A DNA stretch of 64,000 bases. Origin: an uncultured Clostridium sp. Lineage in GTDB: Bacteria > Bacillota > Clostridia > TANB77 > CAG-508. Positions 4,765 through 50,754 of this stretch are shown piece after piece. The notes under the pieces are model-generated. The model was not told the DNA's origin and did not search any database. It worked only from the letters and a program-made list of their open reading frames with translations. The position numbers were made by a program, and so were the translations under genes. The first letter of the stretch is position 1, and the number at the start of each line of letters is the position of its first letter. The stretch lies in assembly GCA_947388675.1 (NCBI GenBank), contig CANDRW010000001.1, positions 24,658-88,657 on the forward strand, written 5' to 3'.

Positions 4765-5901
4765 ATGTTATTGTCTAAAAAATTAAAATGGATATTCCTT
4801 ATTTCTTTTTCTCTCTTACTAGTTTTAGTAGGTTTCTTTTCTTTTGAAAGACTTTCAGCCATTCCTGTTTCAAGTAGTCAAGCTTTTGAATGGCATAATT
4901 CTACTTCAGAAAATACTGTACAAGAAAAGAAATATATTAAGTGGTTTGAGTTTAAAGTTTCTTATGAGGTTCTAGATAAGACATCTAAATTAGATATTCA
5001 ATCACATAACAATCATGAAGATGTGAAACTAAATTGGATTGAATTAATCTCTTATTTAGCCTGTAAATATGGAAATGATTTTTCAAGATACAAATCTCAA
5101 GACTTAACTAATTTAGTAGAAAAATTAAGAAGCGGTCAAACTATGGCTGATTTGACAAAAGATATGAAGAATTATAACTATTATTTTGAAGGCTATGATA
5201 GTGTATTACATGAATTTATTGGGGATTTTAAACAAGAAGTCAAAACTACTGTAAGTTCAAAAACAAATACCGAAGGCACTTCTAGCCTAGATAATTCTAC
5301 TGTTGAACAAGAAATTCCTCAAAAGCAATTTGAAAATAAATATGGTGTTAAAGCCTTCCACCCTGTTGCTAAAAACTATTCTTATAGTCATTATGATGAT
5401 TTTGGTGCTTCTAGGTCTTATGGATATAAAAGGCTACATTTTGGAAATGATTTAATGGGAAGTGTTGGTGCTCCTATTATTGCAGTAGAATCTGGTGTTG
5501 TAGAAGCAGCTGGTTGGAATCAATATGGTGGTTGGAGAATTGGTATTCGTAGTTTTGATAAAAAACGTTATTATTACTACGCCCATTTGAGAAAAAATCA
5601 TCCTTATGCTGAAAATCTAAAAGAAGGCCAAATTGTGCAAGCAGGTGATGTCATTGGTTATCTTGGTATGACTGGATATAGTACGAAAGAGAATGTCAAT
5701 AATATCAATGTTCCTCATCTTCATTTTGGTATACAGCTTATTTTTGATGAAGTGCAAAAAGAAGGACCTAATCAAATTTGGGTAGATTTGTATGATTTAG
5801 TAAATTTCTTGCAAAAAAATCGTAGTGAAGTTTACAAGAGTAACCAAGAGACTAAAGATTATTCAAGGAAATATGAAATAATAGATCCAATTGTGCCATA
5901 A
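4765..5901 (+). CDS. secreted M23 family metallopeptidase
   Basis: 378 aa. N-terminal signal/TM segment. M23 motifs HFGNDL, GYLGMTGYST, HLHFGI. Confidence 0.75.
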   Translation: MLLSKKLKWIFLISFSLLLVLVGFFSFERLSAIPVSSSQAFEWHNSTSENTVQEKKYIKWFEFKVSYEVLDKTSKLDIQSHNNHEDVKLNWIELISYLACKYGNDFSRYKSQDLTNLVEKLRSGQTMADLTKDMKNYNYYFEGYDSVLHEFIGDFKQEVKTTVSSKTNTEGTSSLDNSTVEQEIPQKQFENKYGVKAFHPVAKNYSYSHYDDFGASRSYGYKRLHFGNDLMGSVGAPIIAVESGVVEAAGWNQYGGWRIGIRSFDKKRYYYYAHLRKNHPYAENLKEGQIVQAGDVIGYLGMTGYSTKENVNNINVPHLHFGIQLIFDEVQKEGPNQIWVDLYDLVNFLQKNRSEVYKSNQETKDYSRKYEIIDPIVP

Positions 5902-6861: not shown

Positions 6862-7527
6862 CTATTCTCCCTCCATAAGTCCATCTTCTATTTTGTCAAT
6901 TAATTTTTTAGAGATTTCTTCAACAGATTTAACCATAGTTCCTATATTAGCCTCAACAGTTATCTCCTTACTATTAATCCAAATAGTATTTAATCCCTCT
7001 TGCTTTGCTCTTGTGATATCTAAATAAATATCATCACCAATCATAACACATTCATTGGGCTTTTTATCACCACAAGCACTCAAATATGCCTCTTTATTTG
7101 GTTTTATTTTATGTTCTCCATAACATTCTTGAAAATATTGTCCTATTCCCATATTATTTAATCTGTTCAATTGAGACTCTGCGAAATAATTAGTCAATAA
7201 TACTAATTCATATCTTTGTGCTAATCTTTGTATCGCATCTATCAATAATTGGTTTCTAGGAGGTATGCATATTTTCAATTCTTCAAAAAATACTGTAACA
7301 AATTCTTGTGGCATTTCTCTGTTTATAGCATTTCCCATATGTGTTGTATAATCTACAATATTATAATTATCATACATTTGCTCATATGTTTTTATTCCTT
7401 GTAAAAATAGTCTCACTGCTTCATCAGAATATACTCCTATTCTTTTTAAGGTTTTTTCAACACTAGCTACAAAGTTAACTCCTTGTATAAGAGTTCCATC
7501 TACATCAAAAATAAGTCTTTTTATCAT
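6862..7527 (-). CDS. HAD-family hydrolase
   Basis: 221 aa. Motif I FDVDGTL and a C-terminal GDD motif. Confidence 0.7.
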   Translation of the reverse strand: MIKRLIFDVDGTLIQGVNFVASVEKTLKRIGVYSDEAVRLFLQGIKTYEQMYDNYNIVDYTTHMGNAINREMPQEFVTVFFEELKICIPPRNQLLIDAIQRLAQRYELVLLTNYFAESQLNRLNNMGIGQYFQECYGEHKIKPNKEAYLSACGDKKPNECVMIGDDIYLDITRAKQEGLNTIWINSKEITVEANIGTMVKSVEEISKKLIDKIEDGLMEGE

Positions 7528-7692
7528 GTTATCTAAATTCTCCTTTAATTTAAATTACTATAGATTAGGATTATGTAGCTTTTACCTTGTCTTTAAAAAT
7601 TTCCTCTTGCTTTTCTATAATCTTATTAACTAGAATAGATAACGGTAAACATAACAAAATTATCCAAATAACTACTAATTTACCCTACTTTA

Positions 7693-8508
7693 CTATGCAA
7701 ACTGATTAGCTAATTGATCTATTGGAATCCCACCATTATCACTCCAATCAATCTTAACATTATCGAATTCCTCACTTCTAAAATTATTTAGTCTTTGATA
7801 GTCTTCTTTTTCCATCTCAAAGTTTAATGCTTGTTTATTCTCACTTATCCTATCTATATTAGTTGATTTTACTAAGGCTATCATTTTCTTTTCCTTTATC
7901 AACCAATTAAGTATAATCTGATTTTGAGTTTTTTGGTATTTATTAGCCAATTCAACCAATATCGGATAATTCCTTTGTGCTGTCCTATTTCTTCTTAGTG
8001 GTTGATAGCATAAGAATTTTATATTCTTTTGATTGCAATACTCAAAGAAATCTATTTTAATCTCTTTATTTATTTCTTCTAATTGTTCTAAACTTGCATT
8101 GCTAATGCCTATATATTTTACTTTTCCTATTTCTACCATTTTTTGTATTTCTTTATAAACATTTATTAGAGGAATCTTTGAAAATGAAGGCTTATGTAAT
8201 TGAAGCATATCAAGACACTCAATATTAAGACTATTTAGATATTCATCTAACTGCTTTTCCACATCTTCTTCACATTCAATATTAGGTTCCAAATTTGCTG
8301 CAATAAATAATTTTTCTCTATCTACTTTGTCTATAAATTTTTTCAGTTGCTTTACGACTTCTCCATTATTGTATAGCATAGATAAAGACAAATAATTTTG
8401 TCCCAAGTTATAAGAATACATCAAAGCCTTTATATCATTTTCTATATTTTCAGGCTCTATTTTCCATGTCCCTATACCTATTTCAAATATTTCATTTCTA
8501 TTTGTCAT
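7693..8508 (-). CDS. aldo/keto reductase family oxidoreductase
   Basis: 271 aa, AKR-like pattern (IGIGTW, LDMLQLH). Confidence 0.55.
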   Translation of the reverse strand: MTNRNEIFEIGIGTWKIEPENIENDIKALMYSYNLGQNYLSLSMLYNNGEVVKQLKKFIDKVDREKLFIAANLEPNIECEEDVEKQLDEYLNSLNIECLDMLQLHKPSFSKIPLINVYKEIQKMVEIGKVKYIGISNASLEQLEEINKEIKIDFFEYCNQKNIKFLCYQPLRRNRTAQRNYPILVELANKYQKTQNQIILNWLIKEKKMIALVKSTNIDRISENKQALNFEMEKEDYQRLNNFRSEEFDNVKIDWSDNGGIPIDQLANQFA

Positions 8509-8529
8509 AACACTCTCCTAATTTTCTTC

Positions 8530-9075
8530 TCAATACAACTTTTGATACATCTCATAATCATTCAAAATTCGTCTTACATACATATTCGTTTCTTTATATG
8601 GTATGTTTTCCAAATCTGTGCCATCATCCTTAATCGTTCCTCTTTCTATCCAATTGTTTACATTTCCCATTCCTGCGTTATAAGCAGCTAATGCAATTCC
8701 CACTTGATTATCATATTTTTCTAACAATTGCGAAAAATAATAGGTTCCTAATCTAATATTCGTTTCTGGGTCATATAAATCTACTTCTACTTGCTTTGAT
8801 AATTCTATAGCAGTTTTATCCATTAGTTGCATAAGCCCTTTTGCATCATTATGTGATTTGGCTTGTGGATTAAAATCACTTTCCGCTTTAATAATCGCAA
8901 AAATTAGTAAAGGATCTACTTCACATTCTGCAGCATATTTTGTCACATATTCAGCATATTCTTGAGGATATGCTATTTTCATTATCTTGTTTTCCAAGCC
9001 TAATAAATGAAATAAAACAAAATATAAGATAAAAATAAATATTAATAGTATCAATAATCTTTTTAATACTTTCAC
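8530..9075 (-). CDS. lytic transglycosylase (SLT domain), membrane-anchored
   Basis: 181 aa. N-terminal TM, SLT motifs ESDFNPQAKSHNDAKGLMQLM and AAYNAG. Confidence 0.75.
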   Translation of the reverse strand: MKVLKRLLILLIFIFILYFVLFHLLGLENKIMKIAYPQEYAEYVTKYAAECEVDPLLIFAIIKAESDFNPQAKSHNDAKGLMQLMDKTAIELSKQVEVDLYDPETNIRLGTYYFSQLLEKYDNQVGIALAAYNAGMGNVNNWIERGTIKDDGTDLENIPYKETNMYVRRILNDYEMYQKLY

Positions 9076-9215
9076 TTAACTTTCTAAACTCTCCTTTGTT
9101 TTTCTATACTCTAGGAAATTACCTGCGTAGCATGTAATTGACGTAGAGTATAGTTATTACGAATGCTACAAATTCTTAATGACTTTGTCATTTAGAATTT
9201 GTTAACTTCGTTTCC

Positions 9216-40937: not shown

Positions 40938-43562
40938 CTATCTAGGTTGTTTAATTGCTGCTTGAGCTGCTGCTAATCTTGCAATTGGAACTCTGAATGG
41001 TGAGCAAGATACGTAAGTTAAACCAACATTATGGCAGAACTCAACTGTTGGTGGGTTTCCACCATGCTCTCCACAAATTCCTAAATGAATATCAGGTCTT
41101 GTAGCTTTTCCCATGTCTACAGCCATTTTTACTAATTTTCCAACACCAGTTTGGTCTAATTTAGCAAATGGATCTGATTCATAGATTTTCTTTTCATAGT
41201 AAGAACCTAAGAATTTTCCTGCATCATCACGGCTAAATCCAAATGTCATTTGTGTTAAGTCGTTTGTACCAAATGAGAAGAATTCAGCTTCTTTTGCAAT
41301 TTCATCAGCTGTTAATGCTGCTCTAGGAATTTCAATCATTGTTCCTACTTCATATTTTAAAGATACTCCAGCATTTGCAATTTCTTCATCTGCTGCTTTT
41401 ACAATAATATCTTTTACATATTTTAATTCTTTTACTTCTCCTACTAATGGAATCATAATTTCAGGAACAACATTCATTCCTTCTTTATTTACATTAATAG
41501 CTGCTCTAATAATTGCTCTTGTTTGCATTGCGCCAATTTCTGGGTAAGTAACATCTAGACGACATCCTCTATGTCCCATCATTGGATTGAATTCATGTAG
41601 ACTTACTACTACATCTTTTAGCTCTTGGAAAGTCATTCCCATTTCTTTTGCCAATGTTGTTATTTCTTCGTCTGTATGTGGTAAGAATTCATGTAGTGGT
41701 GGATCTAATAAACGAATAGTTACAGGATATCCTTTCATAGCTTTAAATAAACCTTCAAAATCTCCTTGTTGCATTGGAAGAATTTTAGCTAAGGCTTTTT
41801 CTCTTTGTTCTGCTGTTTTAGAAACAATCATTTCACGAATAGCTGCAATTCTTTCTGGAGCAAAGAACATATGCTCTGTACGACATAATCCAATACCTTG
41901 TGCACCAAAATTGTATGCAACTTCTGCATCTTTTGGAGTATCAGCATTTGTTCTAACTTCCATTTGACGGTATTGATCAGCCCATCCCATTAATTTAGCA
42001 AAATCTCCTGATACTTGAGCTTCTACTGTATCAATTCTTTCACCATATACATTTCCTGTTGAACCATCTAATGAAATATAGTCACCTTCATGATATACAT
42101 TTCCTTGTGGATCTCTAAAGTTTCCTTCTTCTTCATTTACAACTAATTCACCACATCCTGCTACACAGCATGTTCCCATACCACGTGCAACAACGGCTGC
42201 ATGTGATGTCATACCACCACGAACTGTTAAGATACCATGGCATACATTCATTCCATCGATATCTTCTGGAGATGTTTCAAGTCTTACTAAGATTAAATCT
42301 TTATCTCCCTTTTCAAATAGTTCTACTGCTCTATCAGCTGTAAATACAACTTTACCTGTTGCAGCACCTGGTGAAGCAGCTAGTCCTTTTGCAACTGGCT
42401 TAGCAGCTTTTAATTTAGCTTGATCAAAGTTTGGATGTAATAATTGGTCTAATTGATTTGGTTCTACTCTTAAAACAGCTTCTTTTTCAGTAATCATTCC
42501 TTCATTTACTAATTCTACAGCTATTCTAAGTGCAGCATTTGCAGTTCTTTTACCATTTCTTGTTTGTAAGAAGAATAGTTTTCCTCTTTCAATGGTAAAT
42601 TCCATGTCTTGCATATCTCTGTAATGATTTTCTAATAGGTTAGCATATTTTACAAAATCAGCATATGCTTGAGGATTGGTTTGCTCTAATGTGGCAATTG
42701 GTTGTGGTGTTCTAATACCTGCAACAACATCTTCACCTTGTGCATTCATTAAATATTCACCAAATAGTGCTTTTTCTCCTGTTGCTGGGTTACGTGTAAA
42801 TGCAACACCAGTTCCACAATCATCTCCCATATTTCCGAAAACCATTTCTTGAACGTTAACGGCTGTTCCCCAACTTCCTGGGATATCATTTAATCTTCTA
42901 TATGTGATAGCTCTTGGGTTATTCCATGAACGGAATACTGCCTTTACAGCTTCTTTTAATTGTTCTGTTGGATTACTTGGAAATTCACTTCCATGTTCTT
43001 TTAAGTAGATTCCTTTGAAAATTGCAACTAATTCTTTTAAATCTGCTGCTGTCAATTCTGTATCTTGTTTTACGCCTCTTTTTTCTTTCATAGCGTCAAT
43101 TTCTTTTTCAAATAGTGGTTTTGGTATTTCCATAACAACATCACTAAACATTTGAATAAATCTTCTGTAACTATCATAAGCAAATCTTTCATTTTTTTGT
43201 GCCATGCTTGCTGCAACTTCTTCATTTAAACCTAAGTTTAAGATAGTGTCCATCATACCTGGCATTGAAGCTCTTGCTCCTGAACGTACTGATACTAGTA
43301 ATGGGTTTTCTTTATCTCCGAATTTTTTGCCTGTGATCTCTTCTAACTTTGAAAGAGCAGCAAAAATTTCATCTTCGATTTCTTTTGCGATTTTTTCTCC
43401 ATCTTCATAATATCTTGTGCAAGCCTCTGTTGTTACTGTGAAACCTTGTGGAATTGGTAAACCTAAGTTAGTCATTTCTGCAAGATTTGCTCCCTTTCCA
43501 CCTAAAAGTTCACGCATATTTGCGTTTCCTTCTTTGAATAAGTAAACATACTTTTGACTCAT
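40938..43562 (-). CDS. ppdK: pyruvate, phosphate dikinase
   Basis: 874 aa. ATP-grasp N-terminus, phospho-His domain GGMTSHAAVVARG, PEP-utilising C-terminus with the CRTEHMF motif. Confidence 0.95.
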   Translation of the reverse strand: MSQKYVYLFKEGNANMRELLGGKGANLAEMTNLGLPIPQGFTVTTEACTRYYEDGEKIAKEIEDEIFAALSKLEEITGKKFGDKENPLLVSVRSGARASMPGMMDTILNLGLNEEVAASMAQKNERFAYDSYRRFIQMFSDVVMEIPKPLFEKEIDAMKEKRGVKQDTELTAADLKELVAIFKGIYLKEHGSEFPSNPTEQLKEAVKAVFRSWNNPRAITYRRLNDIPGSWGTAVNVQEMVFGNMGDDCGTGVAFTRNPATGEKALFGEYLMNAQGEDVVAGIRTPQPIATLEQTNPQAYADFVKYANLLENHYRDMQDMEFTIERGKLFFLQTRNGKRTANAALRIAVELVNEGMITEKEAVLRVEPNQLDQLLHPNFDQAKLKAAKPVAKGLAASPGAATGKVVFTADRAVELFEKGDKDLILVRLETSPEDIDGMNVCHGILTVRGGMTSHAAVVARGMGTCCVAGCGELVVNEEEGNFRDPQGNVYHEGDYISLDGSTGNVYGERIDTVEAQVSGDFAKLMGWADQYRQMEVRTNADTPKDAEVAYNFGAQGIGLCRTEHMFFAPERIAAIREMIVSKTAEQREKALAKILPMQQGDFEGLFKAMKGYPVTIRLLDPPLHEFLPHTDEEITTLAKEMGMTFQELKDVVVSLHEFNPMMGHRGCRLDVTYPEIGAMQTRAIIRAAINVNKEGMNVVPEIMIPLVGEVKELKYVKDIIVKAADEEIANAGVSLKYEVGTMIEIPRAALTADEIAKEAEFFSFGTNDLTQMTFGFSRDDAGKFLGSYYEKKIYESDPFAKLDQTGVGKLVKMAVDMGKATRPDIHLGICGEHGGNPPTVEFCHNVGLTYVSCSPFRVPIARLAAAQAAIKQPR

Positions 43563-44000
43563 AAAGAACCTCCTTTAATCTTGTTATATTATTTAAAATA
43601 ATATACATTTTGTTTCCCGAGTAAATTCTACCCTAAAACTGACCTTATTATATCGATAAACCCTAAAAAAGTAAAGCATTTTTTGAAATTTTAAATCATA
43701 AGAAAGGAACACTCGGATGTTAGAGTGTCCCTTCCTTTGGAAAGCATTGTTTTGCGTGCATTTACGCAGACCACTTTTATTAAAGCTTTTGCTTTGTTCA
43801 TGGTCCTAGTTTTAAAGAAACATATGTCACAAGGTGGTCCTTGTATCTTCTCTAAGTCTTATTTCTAAGACTTCTCTTTTCGTTCGCCACTACTCAGAGG
43901 ACTGTTTAATAAAACTAGCAAAACTCATCTTTCCTATTTTTACACTCCCTATTGGGTGTGTTGTTTATATTTTATTCGTCTTTTTTCAACATGTCAAGTG

Positions 44001-46124
44001 TTATTTACTATGTTTCCCTTTTTTAGGATTATCTTTTATTTTCTTCTCTTTATGACTTACTACTTTCTTTTTGTTTGGTTCCTTTTTCCTTTTTTCTCTT
44101 GGTGTTTCCAAAATCTCATCTTCAAATAATAATCTTACTTTTTGTTCCATTTTGTTAGATCTATCGAAAATTAAAGTAACTTCTTTTTCAAAGTCAGGAA
44201 TTCCTTGTTCTTGTACTTGCCTTTGAATTTGTTCTTTTAAATCTAAGTTTAATAAGAAATCATCCTCTTCTTTATCCCATTTTTCTTCCTGCCTATATTC
44301 TTTATTATCCCTCTTCTTAGTATTTTCATATTTAGCTGTATCTTCTGCTACCATTAATTCTTGTTGTACATTTTCTACTGGTTCTACTTCATATCTTTGT
44401 GTCTCTATATCCCTTTCTATTTCCTTTGGCATTTCTTCTAATTCAGTTTCCTCTGCCACTAGTTCTGGTTCATCTTGATAAATTCTTAGTCTTACTAGTA
44501 ATGGATAAATCTTCGTTCCAAAAGGTATCATTAAGATATCTTCTTTTAAAAGTACTTTGCCTAAGAATAATGCTAACACATAAATAATGCCACCACAGAT
44601 AATAGAAAGAATAGTACTCATGGAATTTCCTACTACTGTATTTAATCCTTTATTAATGAAATAGACTACCCCTCCCATTAGTGCTCCTGCTGCTATTGGA
44701 GATGCAATCATTCTTCCAAATTCAAAATTTAATTTCAAATTCTTATGGAGTGCAATAATACAAATTAAAAATACAAATCCTTGTGCTACAATAGAACTAA
44801 TCCCTGAACCATTAATTCCAATAGATGGATTACTAATCAAAGTAATATTTAATCCTACTTTTATAAATACTGATAATACTATTGCTATCGCTGGTATATA
44901 GCTCTTATTAACACCGTATAAGCCACCGTTAATTGTTTGGTTTAGTGCTACAAATATCATTGAGATAGAACATAAAATCAATACACTTGCTCCATCTGAT
45001 GCCGTTGGATAAATTAAGTTCAAAATCGGTTGTGCTAAGCTAATAAAACCACAAGCACAAGGAATAATAATCAGTATAGATGCAAATAATGAAAAGGTCA
45101 TTCTCTTTGAAGCTGTTGTATAATCTTTTTTAGCAATAGAAGTAGATATGACTGGCACTAAGGCAGTCGAAAAAGCAATATTTACTGCAATTGGCAGAGC
45201 CGTTAAAGTATCTACTTTTGATAAGATCCCTGTCATACTCATGGCAAAAGCTTCTAGTTCTTCTTTAATTGGATACATACTTGCAAAAGCACTCTGAATA
45301 CATCTGCTAACTGTTGTACTATCAATTAATGGACTAATGATAGAAATAACAGAACTAAAAGTAATTGGAATGGACATCACTAAAATTGTTTTTAATAACT
45401 GCCCTGTTGTTTTATGGGCTTCTGGTGAGATTTGTCTCCTCTTTACTTTTATTTTCTTTCTTTTATAATAAGCTACTAAATAAATAAATGTTAGCACAAT
45501 AGCACAAGTAGTAGATAAGTTTCCTCCTGCTGCCATAATATATGGTTCTTTTCCTATTAAAGCATATACAAAAGTGATAGATAATACACAATTTAAAAAC
45601 TGTTCCAAAATTTGTGAGTAGCTTGTCGGCTTCATGTCATTTAGTCCTGCAAAGTATCCTCTGAATACTGCTGATATAGCAACAAATACAACCGCTGGCG
45701 CCAATACTTGCATAACATATTTTGTATCTGGTACATTAAATACTACTCTTGCAATTGTTTCTGCTCCAAAAAATAGAATAACTGAAAGGATAAGCCCTAC
45801 AATAGTAAAGAAGGTCATGCAAATTTTAAAAATACGCCTAGCCCCTTTGTTATCTCCTATTGCTACTCTTTCTGAAACTAATTTTGAAACAACATTTGGA
45901 ATACCTATTGAAGATAATGCTAATAGTAAAGAATATACTTGATATCCTGCTGAATAATAGCCAAGTCCTGTATCTCCAAAGCCTTCAAAATTGGTGATAA
46001 CTAGCTTATAAATAAATCCTAATATTTTTACCATAATTTGTGAAAACATCAAAACTAGGACATTCTTCATAAAGGATGCCCCTTTTTTCTTATTCATTTT
46101 GGTATCTTTTGTTCTCCTTGCCAT
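44001..46124 (-). CDS. MOP-superfamily polysaccharide/lipid II flippase (MurJ/SpoVB-like) with ~190-aa charged C-terminal tail
   Basis: 707 aa. 14 predicted TM helices in the first ~520 aa (Polysacc_synt-like), then an E/K/R-rich low-complexity tail. The true start may be the internal MKNVLVL. Confidence 0.6.
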   Translation of the reverse strand: MARRTKDTKMNKKKGASFMKNVLVLMFSQIMVKILGFIYKLVITNFEGFGDTGLGYYSAGYQVYSLLLALSSIGIPNVVSKLVSERVAIGDNKGARRIFKICMTFFTIVGLILSVILFFGAETIARVVFNVPDTKYVMQVLAPAVVFVAISAVFRGYFAGLNDMKPTSYSQILEQFLNCVLSITFVYALIGKEPYIMAAGGNLSTTCAIVLTFIYLVAYYKRKKIKVKRRQISPEAHKTTGQLLKTILVMSIPITFSSVISIISPLIDSTTVSRCIQSAFASMYPIKEELEAFAMSMTGILSKVDTLTALPIAVNIAFSTALVPVISTSIAKKDYTTASKRMTFSLFASILIIIPCACGFISLAQPILNLIYPTASDGASVLILCSISMIFVALNQTINGGLYGVNKSYIPAIAIVLSVFIKVGLNITLISNPSIGINGSGISSIVAQGFVFLICIIALHKNLKLNFEFGRMIASPIAAGALMGGVVYFINKGLNTVVGNSMSTILSIICGGIIYVLALFLGKVLLKEDILMIPFGTKIYPLLVRLRIYQDEPELVAEETELEEMPKEIERDIETQRYEVEPVENVQQELMVAEDTAKYENTKKRDNKEYRQEEKWDKEEDDFLLNLDLKEQIQRQVQEQGIPDFEKEVTLIFDRSNKMEQKVRLLFEDEILETPREKRKKEPNKKKVVSHKEKKIKDNPKKGKHSK

Positions 46125-46355
46125 TGATAGCCTCTTTTCATTTTGATGATACTATCTAAAAAAGCGGATTAACAAATTCTAAATGCTAAAAGCATTAAGA
46201 ATTTGTAACATACGCAATAACTATCTTCTATGTCAATTGCACAAATTGTTTTAACAATTTGTTGCAATTTCCTAGAATATAGAAATAGTATATAATCATT
46301 GCTAAGATTATATACTATTTCTATTTTATTTTTCAACCCTTTATTTTTAGTTCTA

Positions 46356-47744
46356 TTAAAATTTCATTTTTTCTGCTATCCAAGCTTCTAATTCATCAAT
46401 TTTCACTCTTACTTGCTCCATGGTATCTCTATCACGAACTGTTACCGTTTCATCTTCTAAAGTATCAAAATCAATCGTTACACAATATGGAGTACCAATT
46501 TCATCTTCTCTTCTATAACGTTTACCAATGCTTCCTGCTTCATCATAATCACACATAAAATTTTGAGATAATTTTTCATATACCTCTTCTGCTTTTTCAC
46601 TTAGCTTTTTAGAAAGAGGAAGTACTGCTACTTTATATGGAGCTAATGCTGGATGCAAGTGTAATACTATTCTTGTATCACCTTCAGCTATTTCTTGTTC
46701 CTCATAGCCATTGCATAGCATAACTAAGAAAATTCTATCTACTCCAACTGCAGGTTCTACACAGTATGGTACATATCTTTCACCTGTTTCTGGATCCAAG
46801 TATGTTAAGTCTTGTTTTGAGGCTTCCATATGTCTTGATAAATCATAATCTGTTCTATCTGCAATTCCCCAAAGTTCTCCCCAACCAAACGGGAATAAAA
46901 ACTCAATATCCGTTGTTCCTTTACTATAGAAAGACAATTCTTCCTTTGAATGTTCTCTCAACCTTAAATTTTCTGGCTTAATTCCCAAATTAATAAGCCA
47001 TTCTTTGCAGAAATTTTTCCAATACTCATACCACTCTAAATCTGTTCCTGGTTTGCAAAAGAATTCTAATTCCATTTGTTCAAATTCTCTAGTTCTAAAG
47101 ATAAAGTTTCCTGGTGTAATTTCATTTCTAAAAGAACGTCCCATTTGACCAATTCCCATTGGCATCTTGCTTCTAGTTGTTCTTAATACATTTTTAAAAT
47201 CTACAAACATACCTTGTGCTGTCTCTGGTCTTAAATATACTGTAGAAGTAGCATCCTCTGTCACTCCCATAAAAGTTTTGAACATCAAATTAAACTTTCT
47301 AATATCTGTGAAATCTAATTTACCACAGTTAGGACAAACTATATTATTTTCTTTAATATATTCCACTAATTGCTCATTTGTCCAGCCATCTAATCCTGAG
47401 ATATCTTTTCCATTTTTAAAGCCCCATTCTTCAATTAATTTATCAGCTCTGTGTCTCGTTTTGCAGGCTTTACAATCAATAAGTGGGTCTGAGAAACCAC
47501 CTACATGTCCTGTAGTCACCCAAACTTGTGGGTTCATCATAATTGCTGCATCTATTCCTACATTATATTTATTTTGTGCAATAAATTTCTTCCACCAAGC
47601 ATCTTTAATATTCTTTTTTAGTTCTGCGCCAAGAGGTCCATAATCCCAAGAATTTGCTAAACCTCCATAAATTTCTGAACCAGGATATACAAATCCTCTT
47701 GCTTTGCATAAGTTAACAAGTTTTTCCATTGTTAAATCTGACAT
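46356..47744 (-). CDS. glyQS: glycine--tRNA ligase (alpha2 class II type)
   Basis: 462 aa. N-terminus [31 protein letters not shown] and class II motifs. Confidence 0.95.
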
Positions 47745-48000
47745 AAAAGTTCCTCCTTTTTATTACTATGCTAGAAACAAACAAAACTTTCATCTCTAGC
47801 TTTTCTCATAAGCTAGGGACGAAAGTTTATTTTCCGCGGTTCCACCCTATTTGATTAACAATTTTGTTAATCCTCTTTCTCTTCTTTATGCTCCAAAGTT
47901 CCCCATTTGGTTATTAAGGTTGGCTCTCACCTTGCCCAACTCTCTCTTGCTTAACTTTTCCAAACTTTTTCTTTTTCATCGCAATTTTTAATTCTATATT
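47745..48000 (-). ncRNA. glycine-specific T-box riboswitch leader of glyQS
   Basis: Minus-strand T-box sequence AGGGTGGAACCGCGG (plus 47834-47848). Candidate specifier GGC in UUGGGCAAGG. Terminator hairpin CTAGCTT...AAGCTAG plus a U-run just upstream of the glyQS RBS. Confidence 0.75.
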
Positions 48001-48030
48001 ATTGTACTCTCCATTTTATATTTTGTCAAC
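48001..48030 (-). promoter_or_regulatory. sigma-A promoter of the glyQS T-box leader
   Basis: Minus strand TTGACA (48030-48025), 18 bp spacer, TACAAT (48006-48001). Confidence 0.55.
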
Positions 48031-48039
48031 ACTTATTAA

Positions 48040-48362
48040 TTTTCCACAATTTTATTATTTTATCCCCATTTTCTAATTTCTACTTGTGGATTTTTTACTT
48101 ACTCTAATTTAGTATTTGTCATTGATTTGTAATATTCCTATCATACATACTTCACAAAATTCACATTTTTATTACAATATTTTTTCAATTTCGACAAATT
48201 TTCGTTCGTTTTATTACGATATTGTTACAAAAGCATTACATTTTGTCAATACATATTACATAATTGTTGCACTAAGTTTACAAAAATCATTTGTGAATAT
48301 CTTGTGGAAATTGTGGATAACTTTGTGAACAACCGTAAATAGGCGCTTGTTTCTGTGGATAA
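48040..48362. promoter_or_regulatory. cluster of DnaA boxes beside the glyQS promoter
   Basis: Perfect TGTGGATAA at 48312-48320 and 48354-48362. One-mismatch boxes at 48303-48311 (TGTGGAAAT), 48040-48048 (TTTTCCACA), 48060-48068 (TTATCCCCA), 48085-48093 (TGTGGATTT). Consensus TTATCCACA. Confidence 0.5.
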
Positions 48363-48417
48363 CTTTTTAAAATTATTTTTTATTATTTATGGTAACATAT
48401 TATTATTGCTATTTTAT

Positions 48418-50754
48418 TTATCTACTACTTTCTTCTAATTTTGACACTAAACTCATTGGTTTGTTTGATTCTCCTTTTGTTGCAGCCTTTTCTTGACTTC
48501 TTTCTTGTTCTAATATTTCATCTATTTTGTTTCTTACACCCATTGTTGAACAGTCTTCTAATCCTAAATAATCCTCCGCAAACTCAATCCCTTCTGTATC
48601 CTTACCCATTTTCATATAAACATAAGCTATATAGGCGCAGTGTCTTTGTGTCAATAAATCTTCATACACTACCAGTATTTTATCAATCATATGCTGTATT
48701 CTGTCTTTTTCTCTTGGTGAAGTATTTGTTATTAAATTTTGAATGCCTCTTTCTAAATCTGCCCAAGCTATTTTCAAATTGACTTCTCTTCTTTCTCTTG
48801 GTATTTCTAAATCTTTGTCTCTTTTCCACTTTTCTTGTACAGCTATGATGATTGAAGAATTTACTCTTGTATCATAAGAAATAGCACTTGCTGCTATTCC
48901 TGTTGCTACTTTTCTTCTAATTAACTCTTGTTTGTCTGCTGGAATACTTCTAATGAGTAACTCTCTTCTTTGTACTTTCCTCCTTATTCTAGTCACTGCA
49001 TTCATATTTCCAAATTCTCCAGCAATTTCTTCATCTGATGTCTCACCCTTTTCGAGCATTCTTTCTACTTCTGCCCTTGTATAGAGACCAAACTTTCTTA
49101 TTTTCAAAATAATTTTGTACTCCGACATATTAAAAGCACTACCTATTTTTTCCACTGGCATATAGTTTCGTGCCATTCTAAATAACACAGCTTTTTCTCT
49201 TCTAGCTTGTATCTCTAGGCTATCTTCTATTACTGCCTCTGCCTCATTTTCCTTTGCAAGTTGTCTCTCCATTTCCTTTTTTCTAACCTTTGCCACTACC
49301 ATATAATCTTTTAAGTCTCCCATAATGGCAATTTGCATATCTGATTTATATGGTAACCATTCTACAACTTCTTCTCTTGTAAAGATATTGTAGTCATATA
49401 AGGCTTCTCTTACTTGTTCTTCTGTTATTCCTAATTGTTTAGCTATTTCCTTTACACTTGTTAAACTTTGTGCTAGTTTTAAAAAAGTTGCTTCATCTTG
49501 TTTTGATATAATTAATCTAAATCTTCGATTAGCTCCTTCTGGTATTCTTACATGAAAGTTTGGCTTTACAATGTTTTCTTCTGCTTTCTTTTTTCCTTGC
49601 TCTTCTTGTTTTTTTCGCTCTTGTTCTGCTACCTCTTTTGCGGCTTCTGTTTCTGGCATTTCTTCTTGTCTAATTTTCTGAACAACTAAAATATCTGTTA
49701 TTCCCGTTATCTCCATAAGTTCCTCATCTGATTTTTCTGGTAATAGCTTAATAATCTGCTTTCTGCTTAAAGCCTTCATATCATGCTTTTTCTGTTTTAC
49801 AGAATCTACATTTTTTAATCCAATTAATTGTGCAATTTCTTTTCCAGTTTTTCCTTGTGCTAATGCAATTAAAAATGCTTGTCTCCTTGCTTCTTCAGTT
49901 TCCTTTTTTCTTTGATTTTCTTCCTGCCTTCTTCTCTCTTGTTCTGCTGCCTCTTTTGCAGCTTCTATTTTTGGCATTTCTTCTTGTCTAATTTCCTGAA
50001 TAACAGAAATATCTTCTATTCCTGTTATTTCCATAAGTTCCTCATCTGATTTTTCTGGCAACAACGCACTAATCTCGCGTCTTCCTAAAAGTCCCGCTTG
50101 GCTCTTCTTTACTCTTACTGTGTTTGGATACTCGTATCCTACTAAAACAGCAATTTCTTCTATAGGTAGTCCTCTTGCTAATCCAATTCTAAGAATTTGA
50201 TCTTTTGCTTCTTGTTCTTTCTTTCTTGCTTGTATTCTAGCCTGCCTTTCCGCTTTTAACATGGCATTTCTTTTATCTGATCGTTCCTTTCTATCAGCTT
50301 GTCTCCTTGCTTTTCTATCTTCTATTTCTTGTCTCATTTCTTCAACAGCTTCTAGCGTCCAACCAGCTTCTTCTTTTACTTCTTCATCCTCTTTTCCAGA
50401 CATTATTAAATCTCTAACTTGTCCTCTAGACATGATACCCTCTTTTTTCCTCATCCATCTAATTGCTGCTACTGTCATTCCTGTTTCTTGTATAATTATA
50501 TTGTTTTCTTTACCACTTCTTGCTAATTTTATAGCTCTTCTTGCCTTTATTCTATCTTCTTCATTTTCCTTCTGTGCTGCATTTTCTACCGAACTTGCTA
50601 AAACAGAAGCAATTTTTTCTTGTATTGCTTCTGGTTCTCCATTCATTGTATCATATAGTTGATTTACTAATTGCATGATTTCTTGCGTTAGTTGTTCTTC
50701 TGTTTTTCTTCCACTACCCATTTTTCGTTTATCCCAATTAACCTTCTTGGCCAA
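48418..50754 (-). CDS. large charged protein built of tandem degenerate helix-turn-helix modules, unknown function
   Basis: 778 aa, E/K/R-rich. At least 8 HTH-like units, e.g. TGKEIAQLIGLKNVDSVKQKK, VKEIAKQLGITEEQVREAL, SDEEIAGEFGNMNAVTRIRRK, ETGMTVAAIRWMRKKEG, SDEELMEITGITDILVVQKIRQ. Two ~105-aa modules are ~90% identical at DNA level (49612-49750 vs 49927-50065). Confidence 0.5.
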   Translation of the reverse strand: MAKKVNWDKRKMGSGRKTEEQLTQEIMQLVNQLYDTMNGEPEAIQEKIASVLASSVENAAQKENEEDRIKARRAIKLARSGKENNIIIQETGMTVAAIRWMRKKEGIMSRGQVRDLIMSGKEDEEVKEEAGWTLEAVEEMRQEIEDRKARRQADRKERSDKRNAMLKAERQARIQARKKEQEAKDQILRIGLARGLPIEEIAVLVGYEYPNTVRVKKSQAGLLGRREISALLPEKSDEELMEITGIEDISVIQEIRQEEMPKIEAAKEAAEQERRRQEENQRKKETEEARRQAFLIALAQGKTGKEIAQLIGLKNVDSVKQKKHDMKALSRKQIIKLLPEKSDEELMEITGITDILVVQKIRQEEMPETEAAKEVAEQERKKQEEQGKKKAEENIVKPNFHVRIPEGANRRFRLIISKQDEATFLKLAQSLTSVKEIAKQLGITEEQVREALYDYNIFTREEVVEWLPYKSDMQIAIMGDLKDYMVVAKVRKKEMERQLAKENEAEAVIEDSLEIQARREKAVLFRMARNYMPVEKIGSAFNMSEYKIILKIRKFGLYTRAEVERMLEKGETSDEEIAGEFGNMNAVTRIRRKVQRRELLIRSIPADKQELIRRKVATGIAASAISYDTRVNSSIIIAVQEKWKRDKDLEIPRERREVNLKIAWADLERGIQNLITNTSPREKDRIQHMIDKILVVYEDLLTQRHCAYIAYVYMKMGKDTEGIEFAEDYLGLEDCSTMGVRNKIDEILEQERSQEKAATKGESNKPMSLVSKLEESSR

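Follow-up and report, generated by a model that had tools for sequence, protein, structure and literature searches.

A polC-adjacent gene of uncultured gut Clostridia encodes a tandem array of helix-turn-helix-like units: architecture, module evolution and possible DNA binding

Introduction

What use does a bacterium have for a protein that repeats a helix-turn-helix (HTH)-like unit 11 times? The question is raised by a gene at positions 48418..50754 (- strand) of a 64-kb stretch of DNA from an uncultured Clostridium sp. (GenBank assembly GCA_947388675.1, contig CANDRW010000001.1), which was analysed as a whole and is referred to as the window. A first-pass annotation, made from the letters of the window, had described the product as a highly charged protein of tandem HTH-like modules. 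Here we report on this gene (the array gene), its product (the array protein) and its family. The fold of the HTH building block is known; none of the libraries searched contains a model of the architecture or of the family. The reading that we put forward for this cytoplasmic, all-alpha protein, tentatively and on the basis of sequence and structure models, is that of a multivalent DNA binder that would contact several sites at once. We regard it as the likeliest of the readings weighed here, though as possible rather than probable.

Results and discussion

A coding gene with its own transcription unit

The open reading frame (ORF) had been placed exactly: it lies on the - strand, begins with a TTG codon and comprises 778 amino acids plus the stop codon (48418..50754). 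A ribosome-binding site, AGGAGG (50763..50768, -), read directly from the sequence, was found 8 nt before the start codon and is preceded by a promoter-like site (50815..50843, -), in which TTGCCC is spaced by 17 nt from a -10 element, TATAAT, extended by TG; this site was assigned by consensus match alone. Further upstream, the DUF1294 gene ends in an intrinsic terminator (50910..50963, -) consisting of a 19-bp hairpin and a U run (RNA folding, -22.4 kcal/mol, z = -7.55). Given this strong upstream terminator, the array gene represents its own transcription unit. No terminator was found 3' of its stop codon.

In the following, P-labels denote family proteins and L-labels the related loci that were fetched. 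Fourteen homologues hold the reading frame across whole-module insertions and deletions (indels), which occur in multiples of 3 nt, and homologues as low as ~25% identity preserve both the frame and the domain order. The ratio of nonsynonymous to synonymous divergence (dN/dS) was 0.27–0.30 in three orthologue comparisons, compared with 0.005–0.13 in the neighbouring genes. The array gene is thus a real coding gene, loosely constrained, and the suspicion that the ORF might be non-coding was not supported. The description as highly charged was accurate as well (37.5% charged residues; 148 K + R and 144 D + E).

Five bipartite modules, a single HTH and a C-terminal domain

A hidden Markov model (HMM) of a 77-aa module, iterated on the family, was run on the six-frame translation of the window. 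It yielded five matches in the array protein (aa 71–147, 186–262, 292–368, 421–497 and 521–597) with domain E-values of 1e-18 to 1e-23, and no other match in the translated window. The at least eight modules of 75–105 aa proposed earlier reduce to five modules of 77 aa, each bipartite, which are preceded by a conserved N-terminal helix and followed by a sixth, single HTH (aa 603–648) and a C-terminal helical domain. This corresponds to 11 HTH-like three-helix units in 5.5 modules, with E/R/K-rich helical linkers between them. The recurring HTH-like motif itself was readily recovered: a strict regular expression found five copies against 0.04 expected in shuffled sequences, and relaxed forms found more. 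Each module consists of two three-helix units, an a-half with the pattern A..I.LA..G....EIA...G.....V......GI and a b-half with the pattern.R.EI..LL...SDEEIA...G.....V..IR.E.

From the N-terminus, with all segments on the - strand, the protein is built as follows. Residues 1–70 (50545..50754), delimited by motif conservation and an AlphaFold2 (AF2) model, contain the family-conserved helix RKTEEQLTQEI..L..QLY. The motif is also present in the distant members P0015, P0017, P0019, P0025 and P0041 and in the paralogue at locus L001, and AF2 predicted a helix at aa 19–36 with low confidence. Module 1 (aa 71–147, 50314..50544), assigned by module HMM, charge and AF2 (predicted local distance difference test, pLDDT, 82–92), pairs a basic a-half with an isoelectric point (pI) of 11.5 with an acidic b-half of pI 4.3. 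It is followed by linker 1 (aa 148–185, 50200..50313; AF2 secondary structure and composition), which is rich in E/R/K/Q/A and forms the core of a 60-residue predicted helix (aa 134–193). Module 2 (aa 186–262, 49969..50199; module HMM) is separated from its paralogue, module 3 (aa 292–368, 49651..49881; module HMM and alignment), by linker 2 (aa 263–291, 49882..49968; AF2 and composition), which falls within a predicted helix at aa 249–299. Linker 3 (aa 369–420, 49495..49650) is poorly conserved, with an indel-rich alignment and a low-confidence prediction (pLDDT below 50 at aa 366–374, 384–394 and 400–411). Module 4 (aa 421–497, 49264..49494; Pfam and module HMM) carries the sole Pfam matches above threshold (aa 419–456) and is connected by linker 4 (aa 498–520, 49195..49263; alignment and AF2) to module 5 (aa 521–602, 48949..49194; module HMM and core model), which forms the first part of the family-wide core. 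The core continues with the single HTH-like half-module (aa 603–648, 48811..48948; core model and profile matches) and a non-repeat C-terminal helical domain (aa 649–752, 48499..48810), recognised by conserved columns and AF2 helices. This domain contains invariant and near-invariant alignment columns and holds one TPR-like hairpin, AYIAYVYMKMGK..EGIEFAEDYLGL. A variable tail (aa 753–778, with the stop codon 48418..48498) shows pLDDT below 50.

The full-length AF2 model reached a mean pLDDT of 78, with the modules at 82–93 and the three-helix units at about 88–92, and a separate AF2 model of the core reached pLDDT 86 and a predicted template modelling score (pTM) of 0.76. Two very long linker helices were predicted (aa 134–193 and 249–299), which contain 45% E + R + K, 18–20% hydrophobic residues and 10–11 opposite-charge pairs at i/i+4. 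ER/K single alpha-helices are long, isolated, E/R/K-rich helices with i/i+4 salt bridges and no hydrophobic seam, and the predicted linker helices are compatible with this type. Charge alternates from half to half inside the modules, with basic a-halves in modules 1, 2, 3 and 5 (pI 9.5–11.5) and acidic b-halves in modules 1–3 (pI 4.3–4.8). Among the other family members checked, 15 of 16 have a pI of 8.6–9.5.

Identity of the HTH units

Three Pfam families exceeded their gathering thresholds, all at aa 419–456, and bear out the HTH-like character of the units: HTH_23 (35.4 bits vs a cut-off of 24.6), HTH_28 (32.1 vs 25) and, marginally, Sigma70_r4_2 (26.0 vs 25.7). Sigma70_r4 stayed below its cut-off (15.6 vs 24.1). 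The homeodomain-like domains HTH_23 and HTH_28 bind DNA through their third helix, for which the basic charge of most a-halves is indirect evidence in the array protein; a match to them defines the domain type, not the protein family. When 73 non-redundant family modules were compared with Pfam (E <= 0.01 for HTH_23/HTH_28), matches were obtained to HTH_23 in 18, HTH_28 in 16, Sigma70_r4 and HTH_29 in nine each and TnsD (PF15978) in seven modules. As had been proposed, no catalytic domain was found, Pfam and NCBIfam giving HTH families alone, and no named family applies: neither the protein as a whole nor its core is covered by a model in Pfam, NCBIfam, PHROGs or PADLOC, where matches are limited to generic single-HTH families.

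Several established classes could be discarded. Sigma70_r2 gave no match at E <= 10 in the array protein, which is thus not a sigma factor. Membership among the LuxR/GerE response regulators was rejected, since GerE scored 17.9 bits against a cut-off of 23.5 and a receiver domain was not found in the protein. Transposases of the IS630/Tc1, IS3 and ISL3 types and serine resolvases were rejected for want of a DDE or serine-recombinase domain and of terminal repeats. In RNPP regulators (Rgg, PlcR, AimR), a peptide-binding domain of several TPR repeats follows one HTH of the XRE type; the array protein has a single TPR-like hairpin, and the Foldseek match to AimR had E = 1.7, so that this class was dismissed as well.

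Compared with all PDB sequences, the module profile matched 8VD6 best (E = 1.7e-27, five stretches). The entry is a 'CAP repeat' protein designed de novo (ProteinGenerator; PMC12339374); the consensus of the b-half aligns with its helical repeat of 33 residues, GRREVRELIEEGKTAEEIAEILGLSVDEIKELI. As a synthetic design it was rejected as a homologue; the match implies that the b-half is a near-ideal helical unit and says nothing on function. The best natural solved structure was 2LVS (Cbp2; E = 1.1e-8, two stretches, both in the a-half), followed by the GerE/LuxR HTHs of VraR, SsrB, NarL and RcsB, with further matches to AcrIIA15, the Bin3 invertase, the paired domain and Sleeping Beauty. The full-length profile matched no PDB sequence, and the core profile matched 8VD6 (E = 1e-7) and otherwise gave weak TPR and HTH matches. 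Weak profile matches were likewise obtained for the single HTH unit (aa 603–648) to AcrIIA15 and the Sleeping Beauty PAI HTH, and for the C-terminal domain to consensus TPR proteins (E 0.0025–9). Foldseek matches of sub-domains include region 4 of SigD.

An old duplication with a homogenised half

Two of the modules had been described as ~90% identical and taken as a very recent duplication in an expanding array. The repeat is real, with a spacing of 318 bp and a local identity of 90–93%, but the high value does not extend over the whole copy. Repeat search and sliding identity delimited two homogenised tracts (both -), one in the module 2 copy comprising the b-half and the start of linker 2 (49904..50089) and one in the module 3 copy (49586..49771), which are 81% identical over 186 nt; 90–93% was reached in 30-nt windows across codons 231–275 vs 337–381, and the identity over the whole 318-nt unit was 69%. 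Tandem Repeats Finder reported the same period of 318 with 75% matches as the sole tandem repeat in the 64 kb.

Neither recent origin nor ongoing expansion was borne out, as orthologues of ~55% identity (P0007–P0010) hold both copies. Between modules 2 and 3, the a-halves are 68–97% identical at the nucleotide level among orthologues and 49–60% among paralogues; this clustering by orthology argues that the duplication is old. For the b-halves, third-codon identity is 84% (window) and 87% (L001) between paralogues within a genome, compared with 66–71% between orthologues of the window and L001, and both copies share lineage-specific residues. Since the b-halves are more alike within than between genomes, concerted evolution by gene conversion, over roughly 140–190 nt, is indicated. 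The pattern as a whole indicates an old duplication with a gene-conversion tract in the second module half. The sole recent change seen was a contraction in a closely related strain (P0004 and P0005), whose proteins are 91% identical to the array protein over aligned residues and lack exactly one 106-aa unit, the module 3 unit, with the junction of the loss inside the homogenised tract.

The two halves also differ in variability across the family. In six of six subfamilies the a-half was less alike between modules than the b-half (between-module identity a-half/b-half 0.38/0.56, 0.28/0.39, 0.35/0.45, 0.57/0.66, 0.30/0.50 and 0.24/0.32). The most variable module columns lie in the a-half, concentrated over columns 11–33, and the putative recognition helix of each module is kept between orthologues and different between modules.

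With respect to rate, neighbouring proteins of the window and L001 are 90–99.9% identical and the array protein 55%. Synonymous divergence (dS) between the two loci was 0.69 for DUF1294, 0.78 for GlyRS, 0.87 for the MurJ-like protein, 0.08 for the C-terminal part of PolC (PolC-C) and 0.18 for PPDK. Diversifying selection on the array gene was rejected, the dS of the neighbours being already 0.7–0.9 and the dN/dS of the array gene 0.27–0.30. Values of dN/dS above 1 occurred in linker 3 alone, a stretch that is short and unreliable. The array gene is fast-evolving under relaxed constraint, and positive selection is not demonstrable. Synonymous divergence from L001 forms a mosaic over 40938–53489 of the window, with DUF1294, the array gene, GlyRS and the MurJ-like gene spanning 0.69–1.09, and GlyRS of L008 is 81% identical with its neighbours at 94–99.7%; this mosaic suggests recombination between lineages around the locus.

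A possible multivalent DNA binder and its competitors

If the array protein is a multivalent DNA binder, the a-half (basic, HTH_23/homeodomain-like and more variable) would be its DNA-reading head, and the b-half (acidic, GerE/sigma-region-4-like, conserved and homogenised) would serve as scaffold or spacer. The E/R/K-rich helices would keep the heads apart, and the protein could bridge, loop or coat DNA. Self-association or partner contact might be provided by the N-terminal helix and the TPR-like C-terminal domain, and unequal recombination between the conserved b-halves would add or remove modules. The weakest step leads from the fixed site near polC and a DnaA-box cluster to a role linked to the chromosome or its replication; the nucleoid or replication role raised by the first-pass annotation is a speculation from conserved position alone.

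A number of observations weigh against DNA binding of this kind. The whole array protein is near neutral (net +4, pI 8.45), and the a-half of module 4, the sole part above Pfam thresholds, is acidic. Both AF2 models were built on shallow alignments (13 sequences for the full length, 15 for the core). Foldseek searches of the PDB returned nothing below E = 0.1 for the full-length model, with helical-repeat/TPR noise, and nothing below E = 0.8 for the core model. The best PDB sequence match is the designed 8VD6, so that the modules also resemble an idealised helical bundle. No tandem repeats that could be targets of the array were found in the window besides the array gene itself. Finally, the polC/DnaA-box synteny is confined to one narrow clade and may reflect inheritance, not function, because it is lost in relatives with GlyRS 83–89% identical, in which other genes lie upstream of glyQS and polC, DUF1294 and the array gene are absent from that place.

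Alternatively, the array protein could be a sequence-specific transcription factor with a small regulon (itself, DUF1294, glyQS or the downstream conserved region), in which the core binds specifically and the extra modules raise avidity only. Core-only members of the family (240–300 aa) indeed resemble ordinary HTH regulators with an oligomerisation domain. The array gene, moreover, has its own promoter-like site and adjoins a conserved non-coding spacer of 390 bp (48030..48417, -; from the array gene to the glyQS promoter, with the DnaA-box cluster), which shows 84% mean column identity across a six-locus alignment, compared with a dS of 0.7–0.9 in the neighbouring genes. However, this spacer persists where no family gene lies directly upstream (L010 and L011), neither a palindrome nor an operator-like repeat was found and no inverted repeats occur in 48300–50900, and arrays of up to 8 modules would go unexplained by a regulator of a single operon. 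We consider such a regulator unlikely.

Doubtful, too, is a protein without DNA-binding activity, a helical repeat or scaffold made of three-helix beads or protein-interaction modules on charged single-alpha-helix spacers. Designed helical repeats head the PDB matches (8VD6; DHR4 and designed assemblies), charged residues amount to 37.5% with a net charge near zero, the b-halves are acidic, the linkers are long E/R/K-rich predicted helices, and the dN/dS of ~0.3 is relaxed compared with 0.005–0.13 in the neighbours; all of this would suit a scaffold. The a-halves, however, are basic, and their scores against genuine DNA-binding HTH families exceed or come close to the curated cut-offs; most family members have a pI of 9–9.5, and it is mainly the HTH of the a-half that varies, not just the linkers.

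A more far-reaching version of DNA binding appears improbable: a natural modular DNA-reading array in which each variable basic head would read a short DNA word. The core would anchor the protein close to polC and the DnaA boxes, and its effect would be on replication or the organisation of the chromosome. Acidic units and charged helices would then set the spacing, and recombination would add, remove and swap heads, through which specificity could evolve. In such a protein, TALE, zinc-finger or Myb arrays would have their counterpart among bacteria.

An origin of the gene as remnant or cargo of mobile DNA (phage, plasmid or transposon) or of a defence island, for instance as a domesticated transposase HTH array or a terminase-like binder, is very improbable. 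The a-half does resemble transposase and resolvase HTHs (HTH_23, HTH_28, HTH_Tnp_ISL3, HTH_7, TnsD), there are weak PHROG matches (the best, E = 0.0015, to a single HTH), and the PADLOC candidate PDC-S01 has a match in the AAA_14/DUF4143 gene that precedes polC. Foldseek against viral models added one uncharacterised, unannotated phage protein (E = 1.6e-4), its TM score of 0.08–0.11 being very low. Against such an origin, tblastn searches of 50,697 phage records and 72,556 plasmids gave no match, and IMG/VR yielded no relative; the phage or plasmid homologue that had been considered was thus not encountered in PHROGs or in these collections, and an origin from phage, plasmid or defence system was rejected. 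In addition, the gene sits in stable housekeeping synteny (rseP, polC, DUF1294, glyQS, murJ-like, ppdK) and has neither an integrase or transposase nor repeats at its flanks. Next to impossible, and already refuted by the comparative data given above, is an ORF arisen by chance in purine-rich DNA, for which the strong purine skew of the coding strand (AT skew -0.34) and long antisense ORFs might speak; the ribosome-binding and promoter-like sites and the confident AF2 model may be added to the evidence against it.

Should multivalent DNA binding prove true, the family would represent an undescribed bacterial DNA-binding build, with distinct HTH heads on a constant scaffold, a strain-variable copy number and a conserved core. 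In uncultured gut Clostridia, its members might organise the nucleoid or act as factors linked to replication, and the arrays might be usable as modular DNA-binding scaffolds. If the protein is an ordinary regulator or a structural repeat, the result is a modest one, a rare orphan family delimited, and still a case in which concerted evolution and unequal crossing-over within one gene can be seen clearly.

A rare family on a conserved core

The array family is rare and found in few uncultured gut Clostridia. A search of 5.8 billion clusters gave 14 proteins at >=48% identity (at least 48%), unnamed or termed 'hypothetical protein', from 'Clostridia bacterium' metagenome-assembled genomes (MAGs). 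An exhaustive HMMER search of 1.84 billion representatives gave 48 family clusters, and a pattern-limited scan of GTDB species genomes, which reaches close relatives only, gave three, all uncultured Clostridia MAGs, including MGBC164179. A word-indexed search with the core profile gave at least six proteins. A scan of Joint Genome Institute (JGI) metagenomes revealed no relative, and a literature search for tandem HTH arrays brought up no account of the family.

Long members share an N-terminal helix (K.TEEQLTKDLE....LY), 3–8 modules and the C-terminal core. This core of ~250 aa, which joins the last module and the sixth HTH to the C-terminal domain, is present in every family member and is the best-conserved part. 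According to the family HMM, proteins contain 1–8 modules, and the number of extra modules on the core ranges from 0 to about 8. Core-only members of 240–300 aa exist: P0066 (264 aa) matches the C-terminus of P0017, a protein of 943 aa with 8 modules, at 91% identity, and the P0066-type locus occurs in two independent assemblies (L011 and L012), with the protein on three contigs, although collapse of repeats in short-read data is a caveat on these core-only alleles. As short-read assemblies break and may collapse at the modules, published module counts are uncertain. In one instance, a P0015-type array gene (at least 898 aa) is broken by a run of N within its repeats (L010, about 9760–9860).

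Genomic context

On the - strand, the order of genes in the window is rseP, NUDIX, AAA_14/DUF4143, polC, DUF1294, the array gene, the conserved spacer with DnaA boxes, the glyQS promoter and T-box, glyQS, the MurJ/SpoVB-like gene and ppdK. An identical order was observed in all close relatives examined, and every related locus long enough to show them, those of distant members included, contains polC, DUF1294 and DnaA boxes. Locus L001 (GCA_022797215.1, JAAWKD010000001.1) has a further family gene (7524–9515) between polC and DUF1294, whose product of 663 aa contains four highly regular modules; the equivalent in the window is a 117-bp gap (51258–51374). In L006 this position holds just two ORFs of 193 aa and 99 aa, which look like a decayed family copy. 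In the more distant L010 and L011 (PolC 63–88% identical), the only family member lies between polC and DUF1294. Hence, in close and distant genomes, the family always flanks DUF1294 just downstream of polC.

The conserved spacer is a neighbour of the array gene rather than an established part of it. The DnaA-box cluster reported downstream of the gene was confirmed: the sole two perfect TTATCCACA boxes of the window lie at 48312–48320 and 48354–48362, 42 bp apart, and boxes with one mismatch were found on the opposite strand at 48040 and 48060. Perfect and adjacent imperfect boxes form the run TTGTTCACA-AAG-TTATCCACA-AT-TTCCACA. The two perfect boxes are kept in all loci checked for them that cover the region; additional boxes vary. 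The spacer further holds an invariant, Spo0A-box-like TGTCGAA (48190–48196) and a mildly enriched TGTAA cluster (5 per 200 bp vs an average of 0.36). An origin of replication (oriC) at the cluster was rejected, as GC skew is monotonic across the window and shows no sign change.

Downstream of the spacer, a promoter-like site (TTGACA-17-TACAAT, 48029–48001) precedes a T-box leader upstream of glyQS (47812–47988, -; E = 1.5e-17). The leader scores 80 bits against an Rfam gathering score of 93, for which reason the default scan of the whole window is silent; the score is lowered because the alignment lacks about 40 central positions of the model. The MurJ/SpoVB-like flippase homologue (44001–46124, -; 707 aa) ends in a highly charged, E/K-rich tail of ~150 residues that lies outside the Pfam domains. 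Just upstream of polC, the AAA_14/DUF4143 ATPase gene (55851–57053, -) is 99.5% identical in L001 and matches a candidate defence family of PADLOC, PDC-S01, along its entire length (E = 2e-145).

The polC gene itself (55827..51375, -) is split by one extra nucleotide into ORFs of 778 aa and 704 aa (53491–53530). The insertion, which lies around 5290–5333 in both L007 and L008, is found at one and the same site in three MAGs independent of each other: that of the window, MGBC164179 and ABMPRH_45_2_1. Relatives with an intact polC read GCT TTA GGA GAA, and the three split MAGs GCT ATT C GGA GAA. In the 0 frame of the split gene, AUU CGG AGA is followed by a stop 13 codons on; the +1 frame restores a 16-residue stretch exactly. 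At this site the window and L008 show two nucleotide differences, which are synonymous in the +1 frame only. The split polC is a candidate for programmed +1 frameshifting in a polymerase that is essential or, alternatively, for a split PolC with TGA/GTG coupling.

Comparison with known systems

The closest natural likeness is to Cbp1 and Cbp2, archaeal proteins that bind CRISPR DNA repeats through two or three tandem homeodomain-like three-helix HTH units with a basic linker (PDB 2LVS; Kenchappa et al. 2013, PMC3597662). The array protein resembles them in its tandem homeodomain-like HTH units, as seen in the match of the module profile to 2LVS. The Cbp proteins, however, have ~100–150 aa, are associated with CRISPR arrays and lack the acidic second unit, the long helical linkers, the N-terminal motif and the C-terminal domain of the array protein, which has 778 aa and 11 units and stems from bacterial MAGs. 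No CRISPR-like array was found in the window, where the only repeat array is the array gene itself.

Sigma-70 region 4 and the GerE domains of VraR, SsrB, NarL and RcsB are matched by the b-half and some a-halves, but the array protein differs from sigma and LuxR proteins in having neither a sigma region 2 nor a receiver, and its scores stay below the curated cut-offs except for the marginal Sigma70_r4_2. Paired-type domains (Pax; PAI + RED of Tc1/mariner and Sleeping Beauty) share with each module the arrangement of two linked three-helix HTH subdomains. Weak matches of the module and core profiles to 1PDN and 2M8E (paired-type, Sleeping Beauty) were obtained, and the matching Pfam families HTH_23, HTH_28 and HTH_29 are transposase-type HTHs. 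A paired-type bipartite domain is present in a single copy, fused to a catalytic or homeodomain part, whereas the array protein carries its bipartite module five times, without a catalytic domain and with an acidic second unit.

In eukaryotic Myb/SANT arrays and Tn7 TnsD-type target selectors, HTH units jointly read an extended DNA site. These proteins have 2–3 closely packed repeats without long charged spacers, and homology was detected in the HTH unit only; what the array protein has in common with them is the arraying of three-helix HTH units.

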